Source: an uncultured Mycoplasmatota bacterium (GTDB lineage: Bacteria > Bacillota_I > Bacilli_A > RF39 > UBA660). From it: a stretch of DNA of 64,000 bases. Made by a program: the position numbers and the translations under genes. The stretch lies in NCBI GenBank assembly GCA_947056845.1, contig CAMSCJ010000001.1:96442-160441 (forward strand). The letters are read 5' to 3'. Under the pieces are notes generated by a model. It saw only the letters and a list, made by a program, of their open reading frames with translations, did not search any database and had not been told where the DNA came from. This document shows, piece by piece, positions 8,676 to 44,836 of the stretch (position 1 is its first letter; every line of letters begins with the position of its first letter).

Positions 8676-9830
8676 CTATCTTTTTATAGCTACTACTATT
8701 TTTTTTAAATTGCGATAAATATTAAAAGTCACATAATATATATAATAAAATAAGCGATTAACAACAAAATCAAATTCGCCAATATATTCAATAACGTTAC
8801 CACCAAAACCTCTTTTAAACTCATAAACGCCATAATCCTTAGAACCTAAAACAAAATTACCACTAATTCCCCCAAAATCATAAAGAGGTAATTTTTTCGT
8901 CTTCGCATATTTAATCATATCAAATTGAAGTTTATATTGAGCCATAAAAGGCATATACTCTTTATAAGTTCCTCCATAAACATAGTGCATATAATATTTA
9001 TCATAAATAAAAACACCAGCTGATAAAGGAATCAACTTTTCTGTTTCTGCTTTTATTTTATCGTATAATTTATCTTCCTTAAAATAAGTTAAATATTGCT
9101 CTTTATCTAGATAAACAATTAATAGTAAGGCTTTATCATTAAAGACTTCTTTTATTTTTTGATAATAAGAAATTGTACGGTCAAAGCAATTATGTCTTTT
9201 ACAAGTATGTTCCATAATTTTTTTAAACTCTTTAATATTTTGACTATTTACTTCCTTGGTTATTAAAGGATACTTTTGAGCTTTTTTTAAAGATCTCCGG
9301 CATCTTTTATCCATATTTAACATTATATCTGATATAGATTTATCAATTGGTAAATAAAAAGACCAACGATATTGAATTTCTTTTGTATAACCTATTGTAA
9401 AACCATTATGGTGATATCCTAAACGTTTCAAAAAGTTAACGAGTCCATTTTTATTATGTGAAGAAACAATCACCCCATCTTTATTTCTTTGACAGTACTC
9501 AACAAATGGATCAATTTTTAAAACTATACCATGGTGCTTTTTAATATATTTTTTTATTTCTTTTGTAAAAAAGGCTAATATTTCATAATTATTATAATCA
9601 GTTAAAAATCCTCTTGGGGCATAAAAAATACTTTTGTTTCCAAAAATATGTTTAGAAATTAATAGTGCTAAACAAACAAATTGATTGTTTTCAATAACAC
9701 CAACATAATGACTTTGCCAACCAGTTATTGCTTTTAAATCTCCCCAAGATGCAGTTTGACAATAATTACTATTTAAAAAATTATCTTGTAATTGCTTAAA
9801 TTGTTCTTTATCTAATTTAATAAATTCCAT
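8676..9830 (-). CDS. FemAB-family peptidoglycan interpeptide-bridge aminoacyltransferase (FemX/MurM-like)
   Basis: 384 aa, with the FemAB N- and C-lobes (WGDLK...; YDFGGISG...YEFKRGFGG). Confidence 0.7.
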   Translation of the reverse strand: MEFIKLDKEQFKQLQDNFLNSNYCQTASWGDLKAITGWQSHYVGVIENNQFVCLALLISKHIFGNKSIFYAPRGFLTDYNNYEILAFFTKEIKKYIKKHHGIVLKIDPFVEYCQRNKDGVIVSSHNKNGLVNFLKRLGYHHNGFTIGYTKEIQYRWSFYLPIDKSISDIMLNMDKRCRRSLKKAQKYPLITKEVNSQNIKEFKKIMEHTCKRHNCFDRTISYYQKIKEVFNDKALLLIVYLDKEQYLTYFKEDKLYDKIKAETEKLIPLSAGVFIYDKYYMHYVYGGTYKEYMPFMAQYKLQFDMIKYAKTKKLPLYDFGGISGNFVLGSKDYGVYEFKRGFGGNVIEYIGEFDFVVNRLFYYIYYVTFNIYRNLKKIVVAIKR

Positions 9831-31969: not shown

Positions 31970-33163
31970 TCACTCCTGTTCTTGCTCCTCCAAACTAATA
32001 TTATCTATAACTTGATAATCTGTTATATCTTCATAGACGGAAAAAAACATTTCTAATTCTATTTTACTCTCTTTTATATCAACTTTCAAATCTTTTGAAG
32101 AAATTATATATTCTTTGTCATTCAATTTACTTTCCATAGCTTTAATACTTTTTTCTCTAGCAATAGCAATGGCCTCATCAATTGTATATATTTTGTCGGT
32201 TTTTTCCACCTCTCGCTGATTTTCATATACAAGGCTAATTGGCAAAAAATTGTGACTTAATAACTTTTTTTCTTCAATTTCCTTATTTTCAAATTTATGA
32301 AAATTGAATAATTCAAATCGTTGATTTAAAAATTTGAGCGTTAATACCTTTTTAGTATTTGCCGTATAATTTTCCTCATTATAAACAAAAGGTATTTCAA
32401 CTTTACTCTTATACCATACTTCACCATAAACACTACCTTTAGCCGATACAACATTTTTTAACGTTTCATTTAAATAGACACTGCCTGACACAATAATATC
32501 GCCTGGTTTAACATAGTCATTAATATTTTTAACAACGACTCCATTTTCCGCAATAATTGTTTTAATCACTGCCGATTTTTTTGCAACAATATTTCTATTT
32601 TCCTCCTTTTCATTAGTAATTGGTATTTTCCTTTCCTCTACTCTAACAATATATTTAGTTCCACTCCGTTCAATTTCAATCCATTCTAATTTATCCTTAT
32701 ATTTATTTAAAATTTCTTCTTTTATTTTTTCGATATCTTTAAAACTTTTAACAAATTTCTTTTCGGTTATTCCATATTTTTTCAGTTCACTAATCAATAA
32801 CTCCTGAATTTCCTTTTTATTATGGACCACTTCAACATCAAAAATAATATTTGTGAGTAGTAATAGAAAAGCAAATCCTATAAACATAAAAAATAATAAT
32901 ATCTTATTTTTATTTAGTATTTTTTTTATTTTAATCAGACCATATATATTTACTTCTTGTAGTTCATATGTTGTTTTAATCTTTTCTACTTTTTCTAAAT
33001 CACTTTTATAAATTCTTATTTCTACTTCTTTATAATTAATATTTTTTAAATCAAGTATTTCTATATTTTGTTTAACTAAACGATTAATAAAGCGATTAAT
33101 ATTTTTACCTTTAATATTTAATTTAATAGAACTTTTAAAACTAGATAAAAAAGAATTCTTCAT
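31970..33163 (-). CDS. yqfD: Sporulation protein YqfD
   Basis: About 397 aa with a single central TM. Sits downstream of yqfC and upstream of ybeY-dgkA, the same order as in B. subtilis. Confidence 0.65.
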   Translation of the reverse strand: MKNSFLSSFKSSIKLNIKGKNINRFINRLVKQNIEILDLKNINYKEVEIRIYKSDLEKVEKIKTTYELQEVNIYGLIKIKKILNKNKILLFFMFIGFAFLLLLTNIIFDVEVVHNKKEIQELLISELKKYGITEKKFVKSFKDIEKIKEEILNKYKDKLEWIEIERSGTKYIVRVEERKIPITNEKEENRNIVAKKSAVIKTIIAENGVVVKNINDYVKPGDIIVSGSVYLNETLKNVVSAKGSVYGEVWYKSKVEIPFVYNEENYTANTKKVLTLKFLNQRFELFNFHKFENKEIEEKKLLSHNFLPISLVYENQREVEKTDKIYTIDEAIAIAREKSIKAMESKLNDKEYIISSKDLKVDIKESKIELEMFFSVYEDITDYQVIDNISLEEQEQE

Positions 33164-40321: not shown

Positions 40322-40648
40322 GTGAAAAAAGATAGAAATTGTGGAATGAATCCATACCCTGTATATCAGCCATACCCACAAGTAGGTCCTATGATGAATC
40401 CTGGTATGATGGCTCCTAATATGATGCCACCTGTTATGGCTCCTGGGAATGTTCAGATGCCACCACAATATTCAATAAGTCAAGATGGTGTTAGCTCTAA
40501 TACTATTGAACAACAAATGGCACAAATGCAACGACAAATCAATAATTTAGATGCTCGTGTTTCTAAATTAGAGAGTTCTATAAATACGATTGGTAATTCT
40601 TCATTTAATTCCAATCAATATTCAAGTGGCAACTATCACATTGTTTAA
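40322..40648 (+). CDS. Small protein with a Pro/Met-rich N-terminus and a C-terminal coiled coil (GTG start), function unknown
   Basis: PYPVYQPYPQVGPMMNPGMMAPNMMPPVMAPG then a heptad region. RBS AAGGAGAG. Confidence 0.45.
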   Translation: MKKDRNCGMNPYPVYQPYPQVGPMMNPGMMAPNMMPPVMAPGNVQMPPQYSISQDGVSSNTIEQQMAQMQRQINNLDARVSKLESSINTIGNSSFNSNQYSSGNYHIV

Positions 40649-41609: not shown

Positions 41610-42974
41610 TTAATTATTACTTATAAATGCTTTAGCTGTTTCTAAATCGCTAAAATGAACTTTTTCATGATTTATAATTTGATAGTCCTCATGACCTTTA
41701 CCTAAAATAAGTAAAATATCATTTTGATGGAGCATCTTGATTCCTTCTTCAATTGCTTCTTTACGGTCATATTTAATTATAAAATTATTTTTTGATAAAG
41801 AACTAGTAATATCACTCATAATAGCTTTTTCATCTTCAGTTCGTGGATTATCATTAGTGAATATTACAAAATCAGATTTGTTAGTTGCAATAGAACCCAT
41901 GATTGGCCGTTTAGTTTTATCACGATCACCACCACAACCAATAATTGTAATAATACGCCCTTTTTTATATTCATTAGCACTATTAATAATATTTTCTACT
42001 GCATCTGGTGTGTGAGCATAATCTATAACAATAACAGCGTCTTTATATCTAAATGACTCAAAACGACCACTTGGCGCATTTAACGTTTTTGATAATTCGA
42101 TTAACTGCTCAATACTATAACCCATTTTATTTAAAATAATAAGAAGATTCATATAATTATAAACATTATATTTACCAGGAATATTTAATTTAACATTATA
42201 CTCTACTTCATCATATATAAATGTAAATTCGCTAGAATCGATATTTAAATTATAAGAAGTAATCCTATAATCAGCATTAGAATTAGTTCCATAAATAATA
42301 TTATTATTTTGTTCTAAGCAAAAATCTTTATAATATGGATTATCACCATTTATAATCGCAAATTTATTATTTCTTAAATTTTCAAACAGCTTTATTTTAG
42401 CTTTTTTATAATTTTCTAAAGATGTATGAAAATCCAAATGATCTTGGGTTAAATTAGTAAACGCAGCATAATCAAATTGCAAATTTAAAACACGATCTAA
42501 AGCTAAAGCATGGCTACTTACTTCCATCGCTATCACTTCAACTTTGTTTTGAATACAATAATCAAACATTTCGTATAAATCAATTAAATCTGGTGTGGTA
42601 TTATCTAAATCTTTAACTTTTCCATCGACATAAAAACCAATGGTTCCTATATAGGCTGTTTTAACACCTAATTTATTTAAAGCTTGATAAATTAAATAGC
42701 AACTTGTTGTCTTACCATTAGTCCCTGTAACACCAATAAATTTTATTTTTGATAAATCACTACTATATTTTTCTTTTAAATAATTAGCTAAATAAACACG
42801 AGTATTTTCAACAATTTTAGTTTTAACCTTATAGTCACCCTTTTCAGCGATTATTTCAGTAGCGCCATTTAAAATAGCTTTATCAATAAAATCATGACCA
42901 TCAATATTTAAACCTTTAATGGCTACAAAAGTGTCACCACTTTTTACCTTACGTGAATCAACCTTAATACTCAT
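41610..42974 (-). CDS. murE: UDP-MurNAc-L-Ala-D-Glu:meso-DAP ligase MurE. The start is taken at ATG 42974 (MSIKVDS...) with SD GGGAGGA.
   Basis: GVTGTNGKTT P-loop and the DNPR motif (DAP-type). Confidence 0.85.
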   Translation of the reverse strand: MSIKVDSRKVKSGDTFVAIKGLNIDGHDFIDKAILNGATEIIAEKGDYKVKTKIVENTRVYLANYLKEKYSSDLSKIKFIGVTGTNGKTTSCYLIYQALNKLGVKTAYIGTIGFYVDGKVKDLDNTTPDLIDLYEMFDYCIQNKVEVIAMEVSSHALALDRVLNLQFDYAAFTNLTQDHLDFHTSLENYKKAKIKLFENLRNNKFAIINGDNPYYKDFCLEQNNNIIYGTNSNADYRITSYNLNIDSSEFTFIYDEVEYNVKLNIPGKYNVYNYMNLLIILNKMGYSIEQLIELSKTLNAPSGRFESFRYKDAVIVIDYAHTPDAVENIINSANEYKKGRIITIIGCGGDRDKTKRPIMGSIATNKSDFVIFTNDNPRTEDEKAIMSDITSSLSKNNFIIKYDRKEAIEEGIKMLHQNDILLILGKGHEDYQIINHEKVHFSDLETAKAFISNN

Positions 42975-42975
42975 A

Positions 42976-44565
42976 TTATCCTCCCTCATTAAATAAATCT
43001 GGTAAATCATTTTCTAATAAAACGAAAGTCTCTTTACCTTTTAATTTTTCAATTAAAATAAATGCTTCTTTAACATCGTTTAATATATATATATGCTTTT
43101 TATCATATTTTTTTAGCATCAAACCATCATAGATTGGTTTAGTTTGCTGTTTTCCAACTAAAATTACATCATCACAGGTATCAGCGATATATTCACCAAA
43201 TTTGCAATTTAGTTCATACTGGCTACTACCAAGTTCAATCATACCAGGAGTCACAATAATTTTTTTACCTGGCATTAAGTTTAAAACTTCTAAAGCCATT
43301 TTTGAACCAGTTGGATTAGAATTAAAAGCATCATCAATTAAATACATATCTTTATATTTTTTTAATTCTAATCGATGTTCTGTTGGCATTAATGCCTTAA
43401 CAGCAGCTTGCATTTTTGGAATAGGAATATTTAATACATGACCTAAGGCTAAACCATCTAAAATATTATAAATATTATGTCTACCTAATAATTTTGTTTC
43501 AAATGTATATGAAGATTTATCATCTTTAAACTTGACTTTAAAAATAGTTCCATCACTTGATAATTCAATATCAGTTGCCATTACATCGGCTTCATTTTCA
43601 ATGCCAATCCAAATAACTTGACAATTATTTTTAATTTTATAATTAACTTGTTTTTTATCATCACGATTTAAGATTGCAATGCCATCACTTGGCAAAGATT
43701 CAATAAGTTCAAATTTCCCCTTAACAATATTATCTTCGTTTTTAAATGTTTCTAAATGCGCTACCCCAATTGTCGTTATAATTCCATATTTAGGTTTAAC
43801 TAAATCACAAAGTATTTTTATATCCTTAAGTTTACATGCACCCATTTCGGCAATAAAAATATTATCAAATTTATCAAGTCCATTGTTAATAGATTTCATA
43901 AGTCCATACGGTGTATTAAAGCTTTTAGGTGTTGGATAAGAATTATATTCACTACTTAGAATTGTATTTAAAATATTTTTACTACTTGTTTTACCATAAC
44001 TACCAGTAATTCCAACAATTTCTAAATTAGACATATTTTTTAATTTTTTCTTAGCCTTATTTAAATAATAGAAATAAACAAACTTTTCAGCGGGGATATT
44101 TATAATGTTAATTATATAAGTTACTATAAAAGATAAGTAACCAAATAAAGTAATAATTAAGTAATAATATAATATATTATCAAAATTATAAGTTTTATAA
44201 ATTATATATAATAAAGCAATAAATAATATAAACAATGTTACAAATAATCTTTTTACACGACTCGTTATAACAAATGGTTTCTTTTGTTGTTCTTTTTTAA
44301 TTAAACTGAATTCTATATAAAAAGATATCGCAAATAATAAAAAGGCTACATACATATAATAATTTTTTAATACTAAAACTATTAATAATAACGGAAAAAG
44401 AAATATATCATAAGTAATTAGTGATTTAAAAGGATTTTTAAATATCCATTTTAAATATCTATTACTAACATTATAAGAATTTTGTTGTAACATATAAATA
44501 GCTTTTCGATACTTTAAAATCATATATAAAATAAATGGTATTAACGAAATTAATAAATCTTGCAT
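42976..44565 (-). CDS. murF: UDP-MurNAc-tripeptide:D-Ala-D-Ala ligase MurF fused to an N-terminal polytopic membrane domain of about 180 aa
   Basis: P-loop GITGSYGKTS lies near residue 190. Downstream motifs FNTPYGL, GRHNIYNIL and DDAFNSNP match MurF. Residues 1-180 form about 5 hydrophobic helices in the same frame with no intervening stop. Confidence 0.7.
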   Translation of the reverse strand: MQDLLISLIPFILYMILKYRKAIYMLQQNSYNVSNRYLKWIFKNPFKSLITYDIFLFPLLLIVLVLKNYYMYVAFLLFAISFYIEFSLIKKEQQKKPFVITSRVKRLFVTLFILFIALLYIIYKTYNFDNILYYYLIITLFGYLSFIVTYIINIINIPAEKFVYFYYLNKAKKKLKNMSNLEIVGITGSYGKTSSKNILNTILSSEYNSYPTPKSFNTPYGLMKSINNGLDKFDNIFIAEMGACKLKDIKILCDLVKPKYGIITTIGVAHLETFKNEDNIVKGKFELIESLPSDGIAILNRDDKKQVNYKIKNNCQVIWIGIENEADVMATDIELSSDGTIFKVKFKDDKSSYTFETKLLGRHNIYNILDGLALGHVLNIPIPKMQAAVKALMPTEHRLELKKYKDMYLIDDAFNSNPTGSKMALEVLNLMPGKKIIVTPGMIELGSSQYELNCKFGEYIADTCDDVILVGKQQTKPIYDGLMLKKYDKKHIYILNDVKEAFILIEKLKGKETFVLLENDLPDLFNEGG

Positions 44566-44836
44566 ACTACTCACCAATATAATTATACAATAAATTGAAA
44601 TAATTTCATAATAAAAAAGACAAAATCTGTTTTTTCTTTATATTGTATTAAATATAATACGCAATAATTTGATATTTTGTTAAATTTTAATGTGAGTATT
44701 ATTTACTAAAAACTTTATAAATTCTAGTATCTATTTTGGAGTGAATTAATTTTATAATATAGCCATTTTACTACATTAAAAATTTTTTGACAAATTAGAA
44801 AAGAAAAATGATAACATCAAATATTATCATTTAAAC

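Follow-up and report, generated by a model that had tools for sequence, protein, structure and literature searches.

The 64-kb window analysed here, a stretch of 64,000 nucleotides of contig CAMSCJ010000001.1 from an uncultured Mycoplasmatota bacterium (lineage RF39), encodes a MurF-type ligase whose canonical N-terminal domain is replaced by a membrane domain with five predicted transmembrane (TM) helices. The gene is referred to as TM-murF and its product as TM-MurF; L- and P-numbers are labels for the loci and proteins used in comparison. From the sequence comparisons described below it appears somewhat probable that TM-MurF is a membrane-integral D-Ala-D-Ala-adding enzyme acting on the classical substrates, with loops of the membrane domain replacing the uridine-binding cap and with the enzyme held at the site of MraY. 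The TM-MurF family is real, widespread, experimentally tractable and apparently undescribed.

The original prediction had proposed that a polytopic membrane domain takes the place of the canonical N-terminal domain within a single reading frame, and the Pfam matches, the coverage of the MurF model TIGR01143 and the homologues agree on this point. TIGR01143 was the top NCBIfam model with 223.8 bits, and the match covers profile positions 65–403 of 418, starting at residue 172. PF01225, the N-terminal Mur_ligase family, gave no match in the whole of TM-MurF or in residues 1–170 alone. The ATP-binding P-loop GITGSYGKTS, expected near residue 190 instead of about 110, was found at residues 185–194, compared to about residue 104 for its equivalent in E. 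coli MurF. The preceding part, described beforehand as about five hydrophobic helices in one frame without a stop, indeed shows five hydrophobic segments in an intact open reading frame (ORF), located by Kyte-Doolittle hydropathy at about residues 3–19, 48–66, 70–88, 105–123 and 131–155. All five were modelled as helices by AlphaFold2 with predicted local distance difference test (pLDDT) values of 82–95. For the full-length protein a mean pLDDT of 84 and a predicted template-modelling score (pTM) of 0.72 were obtained, and for the membrane domain alone values of 88 and 0.81. A Pfam search with residues 1–170 alone matched no family, and comparison of the membrane domain with solved structures matched no known fold.

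Lys and Arg counts were computed over 18 close and 20 distant homologues. The sum of Lys and Arg amounts to about 6 in loop 1, 5.4 in loop 3 and 4.5–5.8 in the segment following TM5, with less than 1 in each of the N-terminal tail, loop 2 and loop 4. The predicted topology is hence N-out and C-in, which according to the positive-inside rule places the ATP-dependent ligase on the cytoplasmic side. The conserved positions of the domain, judged across family proteins sharing just 37–61% identity, follow a similar pattern. In loop 1, Q27 and Y31 are invariant and H24, L26, W40 and N44 nearly so. Loop 3 and the start of TM4 contain the invariant K95, T101, R103 and R106 together with the nearly invariant K96, K105 and T110, and in TM5 and the linker region P158, E160 and A171 are invariant and N153 nearly invariant. 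HMLQxNxY, (K)KKPxxxTxRVKR and NxPxE can be given as signature motifs of the domain. The column majority was 0.57–0.71 in the cytoplasmic loops, 0.22–0.59 in the TM helices and 0.10–0.37 in the outer loops. Because conservation sits in the Lys/Arg-rich cytoplasmic loops and not in the helices, the membrane domain is, judging from this distribution, more than a passive anchor. The polar, aromatic and basic surface predicted at the membrane–cytosol interface by the ligase cleft resembles a site at which a diphosphate-sugar head group or a partner protein could bind.

The ligase module, consisting of the central and the C-terminal domain, spans residues ~172–517. All NCBIfam models scoring above the best MurE-only model include MurF (223.8, 176, 146, 131 and 115 bits), and the rival models reached at most 90 bits for MurE, 72 bits for MurC and 68 bits for MurD. 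The match of the C-terminal domain to PF02875 lies with 37 bits above the cut-off of 28.4. MurF also accounts for the seven best-scoring sequence matches in the PDB (E 1e-25 to 4e-32). When the model was compared by Foldseek, MurF structures likewise took the first ten places, one of them being A. baumannii 4QF5 (E 2e-25, TM-score 0.71), ahead of MurE, MurC and MurT. None of the MurT models matched the window protein at E ≤ 0.01 and DUF1727 gave no match; on the family member P0351 the MurT models reached 33–34 bits versus cut-offs of 800. The P-loop, E240, H270, K284, LLGxHN, DDxxNxNP and TPGMxELG, which we take to be the catalytic set of Mur ligases and the C-domain motifs of the MurF type, are retained in the family alignments. 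The invariant LENDLPD motif lies near the position where canonical MurFs presumably carry a KGSR-type motif. The chemistry is most likely still that of MurF.

Whether related taxa hold the same fusion, a question raised with the original prediction, can be answered in the affirmative, since the fused ORF is intact in 82 of 82 independent loci from metagenome-assembled genomes (MAGs) and isolate genomes. A search of 5.8 billion proteins revealed thousands of relatives, the best 120 of which were checked for length. All but P0114, which has 350 amino acids, are 502–535 amino acids long, and for 118 of these 119 the coverage of the query is 95% or more. Searching with the membrane domain alone (HMMER) gave 308 matches among 1.84 billion cluster representatives. 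All of them are situated at the N-terminus of MurF-like proteins, and the short entries that were inspected are contig-end fragments that run into the P-loop or end before it. In comparison with the relatives L004 and L003 the ratio of nonsynonymous to synonymous substitution rates (dN/dS) was 0.12 and 0.22 for residues 1–177, and the ligase part gave 0.10 and 0.12. These values show purifying selection on both halves, and the membrane part is therefore translated and under constraint.

It is thus highly improbable that the fusion is an artefact, be it a frameshift or misassembly by which a truncated murF was fused to the gene of a small membrane protein, or a true start at Met178 (MSNLEIVG). 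In favour of such an artefact, the ligase-only protein P0114 exists in the database, and the low-coverage contig L087 holds a 5'-truncated copy. In L086 (3420–5053), however, the ligase-only form of P0114 is an artefact, as the gene is interrupted there by a stretch of N where scaffolds were joined. A ribosome-binding site is not seen in front of Met178 on inspection of the sequence. The frameshift or two-gene reading is ruled out by the 82 intact loci and the dN/dS values. A start at Met178 behind a leader that is not translated is ruled out by the dN/dS values and the invariant motifs. These were the two scenarios named beforehand as refuting the original prediction. The copy in L087 (1–1335, a contig from a Hadza metagenome), to which P0114 also traces, keeps just the end of TM5 and starts at the equivalent of M178, with a divergent cmk-like gene on its 5' side. 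The truncation looks like a genuine, low-coverage variant of a strain without the TM helices, but may also stem from misassembly; it has no bearing on the window copy.

The coordinates of TM-murF, its domains and its neighbours are collected in Table 1.

Table 1. Position of TM-murF, its domains and motifs, and adjacent genes in the 64-kb window (aa, amino acid residues).
Feature	Coordinates	Strand	Basis and remarks
TM-murF, complete coding sequence	42976..44565	-	529 aa + stop; ORF listing; full-length homologues 519-544 aa in 82/82 loci
N-terminal membrane domain, aa 1-170, five predicted TM helices	44056..44565	-	hydropathy, AlphaFold, Lys+Arg pattern; no Pfam family, no known fold
Cytoplasmic loop 1, aa 20-47, motifs H-M-L-Q-Q-N-x-Y and R-Y-L-K-W	44425..44508	-	family alignments, Lys+Arg content
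Cytoplasmic loop 3, aa 89-104, motif K-K-P-x-x-x-T-x-R, running on as V-K-R into TM4	44254..44301	-	alignments, Lys+Arg content
TM5 end and cytoplasmic linker helix, aa 156-180, N-x-P-x-E motif, into P-loop strand	44026..44100	-	alignments, AlphaFold model
ATP-binding P-loop GITGSYGKTS, aa 185-194	43984..44013	-	read in translation; alignment to E. coli MurF
Mur ligase central (ATPase) domain, aa 186-373	43447..44010	-	Pfam PF08245 Mur_ligase_M, E 4.8e-40
Mur ligase C-terminal domain, aa 397-516, with DDAFNSNP and TPGMIELG	43018..43377	-	Pfam PF02875, E 7e-9
C-terminal motif L-E-N-D-L-P-D, aa 516-523	42997..43020	-	invariant across TM-MurF family alignment
Shine-Dalgarno-like GGTGAG	44570..44575	-	4 nt 5' of ATG 44565; read from sequence
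murE (meso-diaminopimelate type)	41610..42974	-	Pfam, NCBIfam NF001126 509 bits; ribosome-binding site GGGAGGA 42979-42985
AsnB-like asparagine-synthase-type amidotransferase, 604 aa	44837..46651	-	directly upstream of TM-murF, same orientation; same position in L006, L007

TM-murF is an uninterrupted frame of 529 codons on the minus strand with the start ATG at 44565 and the stop TAA at 42978–42976. In the mechanical ORF listing it extends 12 nt further in the 5' direction, to a TTG at 44577. ATG 44565 is likely the true start because the homologues begin there and the GGTGAG site is found 4 nt upstream. A TATAAT hexamer is present just upstream of the GGTGAG site. A scan of the window DNA (G+C content 25%) for promoters and terminators gave 62 sites compared to 60 expected, which is not above chance.

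The next gene on the minus strand is murE. The original prediction had placed murF downstream of murE; with both genes on the minus strand, TM-murF is in fact the upstream one. The murE start codon ATG 42974 comes only 1 nt after the TAA of TM-murF and its GGGAGGA site lies within the last TM-murF codons, on which basis the two genes are translationally coupled. The listed start of the murE ORF at 43010, overlapping TM-murF by 35 nt, is too long; MurE homologues in related loci begin just past the TM-murF stop. Unlike the neighbouring TM-MurF, the MurE of the window contains all three Mur ligase Pfam domains. As for the upstream neighbour, related AsnB/LtsA enzymes amidate meso-diaminopimelate (mDAP) in peptidoglycan precursors. 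In addition, a RodA/FtsW protein, a FemAB-family protein and YqfD are encoded, and the window is that of a walled Bacillota chromosome. Its proteins are about 88–99% identical to those of MAG JAAWGF01, labelled "Bacilli bacterium".

Some further observations were made on the window and its relatives. The FemAB-family protein (8676–9830, minus strand) belongs to the aminoacyl transferases of peptidoglycan branches or bridges; the MurE found here scores as mDAP-type. Sporulation genes are represented by YqfD at 31970–33163 (minus strand) and, in a relative, by Spo0A (L066:9024–9797), and therefore at least some reduced gut Bacilli keep sporulation machinery. At 40322–40648 (plus strand), divergent from its neighbours, lies a small ORF without an assigned family. 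Its 108 amino acids include many Pro, Met, Gln and Asn, and L004 has a counterpart with 96% identity.

In other genomes, the family mostly occurs in a different setting. The 82 loci comprise 83 family genes, 65 of which form a cassette of an alpha/beta-hydrolase (~246 aa, overlapping start), TM-murF and Ddl (~397 aa). Seven of the 83, the closest relatives of the window copy, sit upstream of murE, and the remaining ones have unrelated housekeeping neighbours. Within the cassette the hydrolase ranges from ~246 to 276 aa, its stop overlapping the next start, and Ddl from ~390 to 407 aa. The arrangement is common to MAGs of gut Bacilli and to cultured Bacillales/Paenibacillus, with further examples in L001 (9256–12787), L083, L084, L088 and L089. 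The best match of the hydrolase is the EstV lipase model, under its cut-off. The Ddl scores above the cut-offs of the D-Ala-D-Ala ligase subfamilies; an identity as a Van-type ligase was rejected, the scores on the Van models being far below cut-off. In L079 (9232–16543) the three genes are present as a tandem duplicate, with an identity between copies of 57% for the ligase and 60% for Ddl. This duplication of the whole cassette indicates that the three genes behave as a unit.

Several loci deviate from this pattern or extend it. Two TM-MurF genes are found in MAG CAKOXL on separate contigs (L071, L081). A Peptidase_M15 gene directly follows the cassette ddl in Alkalihalobacillus sp. AL-G (L083:13048–13761) and in a Paenibacillus (L089:12795–13499). 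On the VanX/DdpX models the protein of Alkalihalobacillus stays under the cut-off, and that of Paenibacillus is known from a precomputed Pfam match; the M15 neighbour hints at D-Ala-D-Ala turnover tied to the cassette. A LiaF-like membrane protein, of a family linked to cell-wall-antibiotic stress, is encoded right after TM-murF in L058 (2422–3090), where it stands between TM-murF and ddl, and in L078 (11590–12258). No canonical MurF was found in ~1.4 Mb of flanking sequence of related genomes (20-kb flanks) or in the 64-kb window. Additional Mur ligases near TM-murF in related loci were considered as canonical MurFs and rejected, all of them being MurE. Paired MurE paralogues close together occur in L030 (12425–15199) and L077 (12506–17002), and both pass the equivalog cut-off for mDAP-type MurE.

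At least 514 species representatives, the majority being gut Bacilli that have not been cultured, encode the membrane domain, as determined by a scan with the domain alignment over one genome per GTDB species. The closest members, among the matches listed, belong to uncultured gut and rumen genomes labelled Bacilli, Tenericutes, Mycoplasmatota and Erysipelotrichaceae, or Clostridium sp. CAG:524, CAG:1000 and Acholeplasma sp. CAG:878. More distant ones were found in Oscillospiraceae, Lachnospiraceae (e.g. P0379) and Clostridia MAGs. The occurrence in cultured Bacillales and Paenibacillus was unexpected. Besides Paenibacillus, it comprises the haloalkaliphilic Alkalihalobacillus, Pseudalkalibacillus, Salsuginibacillus, Alteribacillus, Evansella cellulosilytica, Salipaludibacillus, Gracilibacillus, Geomicrobium and Alkalicoccus. 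Database labels of the family proteins are either MurF or "Mur ligase family protein". The 4–5 Mb genomes of Bacillales/Paenibacillus are expected to hold a canonical murF as well and, if they do, the cassette would be an accessory module there. In the reduced gut lineages TM-MurF may be the only MurF.

With canonical MurF (TIGR01143; 1GG4, 4CVK/4CVM, 4QF5, 3ZL8, 2AM1) TM-MurF shares the central and C-terminal domains, the P-loop, the catalytic Glu, His and Lys, motifs of the DDxYNxNP and GxMxELG type, and a linkage to ddl and murE. It differs in that the N-terminal domain of ~80–100 residues (profile positions 1–64) is gone and a five-helix domain of ~170 residues is present instead. The identity to solved MurFs is only ~20–26%, and the ENDLPD motif is specific to the TM-MurF family. 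CapB/PgsB, the poly-gamma-glutamate synthetase, is another amide ligase of the Mur ligase superfamily with an N-terminal membrane anchor, working in a membrane complex; it differs in its single anchor helix, in its activity as a glutamate polymerase and in lacking the MurF-type C-terminal motifs. CapB/PgsB is absent from the NCBIfam and PDB matches of TM-MurF.

A MurF module without N-terminal cap has been described in the linker-less MurE-MurF of B. pertussis (PDB 8F5D; PMC10214165), where another element of the protein covers the exposed surface. The cap is therefore dispensable when such an element is available. The substitute there is the soluble C-terminus of MurE, unlike in TM-MurF, which has a membrane domain and whose MurE is encoded by a separate, coupled gene. 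The survey of natural Mur chimeras in the same work, restricted to Mur proteins of more than 600 aa, reports MurE-MurF, MurG-MurC, MurC-MurB, MurC-Ddl, MurD-FtsW and MraY-MurG, and no TM-MurF (PMC10214165). MurD-FtsW and MraY-MurG resemble TM-MurF in that a cytoplasmic precursor enzyme is fused to an integral membrane protein from its own pathway. Their membrane part, however, is a recognisable enzyme or a protein of the shape, elongation, division and sporulation (SEDS) family, and the Mur ligase keeps its three domains, whereas in TM-MurF a small domain of no known family replaces one of them.

MurT, the Mur-ligase homologue in the lipid II amidotransferase MurT/GatD, uses lipid I/II as substrate and not precursors linked to uridine diphosphate (UDP) (PMC6085368). 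It likewise lacks the uridine-binding N-terminal domain, works at the membrane and is among the Foldseek matches to the ligase part. In contrast to TM-MurF it is soluble, has a C-terminal domain of the DUF1727 type and a GatD partner, and amidates D-Glu. VanT of VanC-type clusters also presents a soluble-type enzyme of the precursor pathway behind an N-terminal polytopic membrane domain, in a D-Ala-D-X module (PMC9866002). It is, however, a pyridoxal-phosphate-dependent serine racemase with an unrelated membrane domain, and no homology to TM-MurF was detected. In genomic work on the peptidoglycan genes of RF39, RFN20 and ML615J-28, MurF is not mentioned and some steps of the pathway are reported as missing (PMC10868615). 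In open-access papers and preprints no description of a membrane-bound or TM-fused MurF was found.

In the proposed mechanism, the five N-terminal helices would embed the enzyme so that its N-terminus faces outward and its ligase part the cytoplasm. MurE would provide the stem N-acetylmuramic acid (MurNAc)-L-Ala-D-Glu-mDAP, and TM-MurF would add D-Ala-D-Ala to the UDP-MurNAc-tripeptide in an ATP-dependent step. The cytoplasmic loops, rich in Lys/Arg and aromatic residues, may stand in for the canonical uridine-binding cap, probably holding the diphosphate-sugar end of the acceptor or docking MraY. The pentapeptide precursor would then be produced at the membrane surface where MraY uses it, a putative coupling that the original prediction had also suggested. 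Some findings weigh against this reading. A soluble UDP-linked substrate would not by itself demand a polytopic membrane domain. In the PDB sequence search the last ~55 residues of TM-MurF remained unaligned with solved MurFs. Furthermore, the cassette is non-syntenic in the large-genome Bacillales/Paenibacillus and twice stands beside a VanX-like M15 dipeptidase, a pattern that looks like an accessory module and hence, possibly, a specialised role. Finally, MurF is the best family for the C-terminal part by sequence and fold, as originally claimed, but the score of 223.8 bits on TIGR01143 does not reach the curated MurF cut-off of 288.6. Three further family members, at 231–245 bits, are likewise below it. 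The low score results from the absence of the first 64 profile positions and the divergence of the remainder, and the MurF assignment is therefore based on best match and gene context and not on family membership.

The same score could point to a specialised paralogue, i.e. a module of hydrolase, TM-ligase and Ddl that adds D-Ala-D-X or uses a non-canonical acceptor, for example under stress or antibiotics, beside a canonical housekeeping MurF. The family's own invariant C-terminal ENDLPD motif, the presence of two copies in some genomes and the NCBI name of some members, just "Mur ligase family protein", are compatible with this, as is the variable position of the cassette in the 4–5 Mb Bacillales/Paenibacillus, sometimes near a VanX-like peptidase or a LiaF-like gene. 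In the window, however, the gene lies outside the cassette and is coupled to murE, and the family is near-ubiquitous in gut lineages (≥514 species representatives) with housekeeping neighbours. The Ddl of the cassette scores above the cut-offs for D-Ala-D-Ala ligase subfamilies and far below those for Van ligases, and the ~1.4 Mb of related-genome flanks hold no canonical MurF. We regard a paralogue of this kind as rather unlikely.

The acceptor might also be lipid-linked. TM-MurF would then act on undecaprenyl-pyrophosphate-MurNAc-tripeptide (lipid I/II with a tripeptide stem) with its domain binding the lipid-pyrophosphate head group, and D-Ala-D-Ala addition, or re-addition after trimming, would be a membrane step. 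The lost domain is the uridine-binding part of Mur ligases, and the homologue MurT acts on lipid I/II instead of UDP-linked precursors (PMC6085368). The conserved residues of the membrane domain are basic or aromatic at the predicted membrane–cytosol interface. An alpha/beta hydrolase and sometimes an M15 dipeptidase travel with the family, compatible with trimming and re-arming of stem peptides, and in L079 the whole cassette is duplicated as a unit. On the other hand, the cap-less MurE-MurF of B. pertussis still uses UDP-linked substrates (PMC10214165), the coupling to murE fits the classical soluble order of steps, and MraY would be required to accept the tripeptide nucleotide efficiently. 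We regard a lipid-linked acceptor as unlikely. Slightly more doubtful still is its extended form, in which the membrane domain would be a lipid-pyrophosphate module that, together with the hydrolase and Ddl, edits or completes stem peptides on undecaprenyl-pyrophosphate-linked MurNAc-tripeptide and not on the UDP precursor. If true, the lipid-linked reading would mean that MraY acts ahead of MurF in a large group of gut Bacillota, a reordering of the textbook pathway.

The soluble part of peptidoglycan synthesis, located in the cytoplasm, is usually illustrated by MurC to MurF. It is a long-standing question whether their products are handed over directly to MraY, which has so far been approached only via weak interactions and soluble chimeras. 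A membrane-built MurF is found in hundreds of Bacillota species from gut and soil, some of them cultured (Evansella cellulosilytica, Gracilibacillus, Paenibacillus), and these cultured members therefore allow direct tests of channelling and of what the N-terminal domain of MurF does. The conserved cassette of hydrolase, TM-MurF and Ddl constitutes an uncharacterised cell-wall module. Since the family scores below the curated MurF cut-off, pathway reconstructions of RF39-like genomes could miss or mis-score MurF, and inhibitors designed on three-domain MurF may not carry over to TM-MurF.

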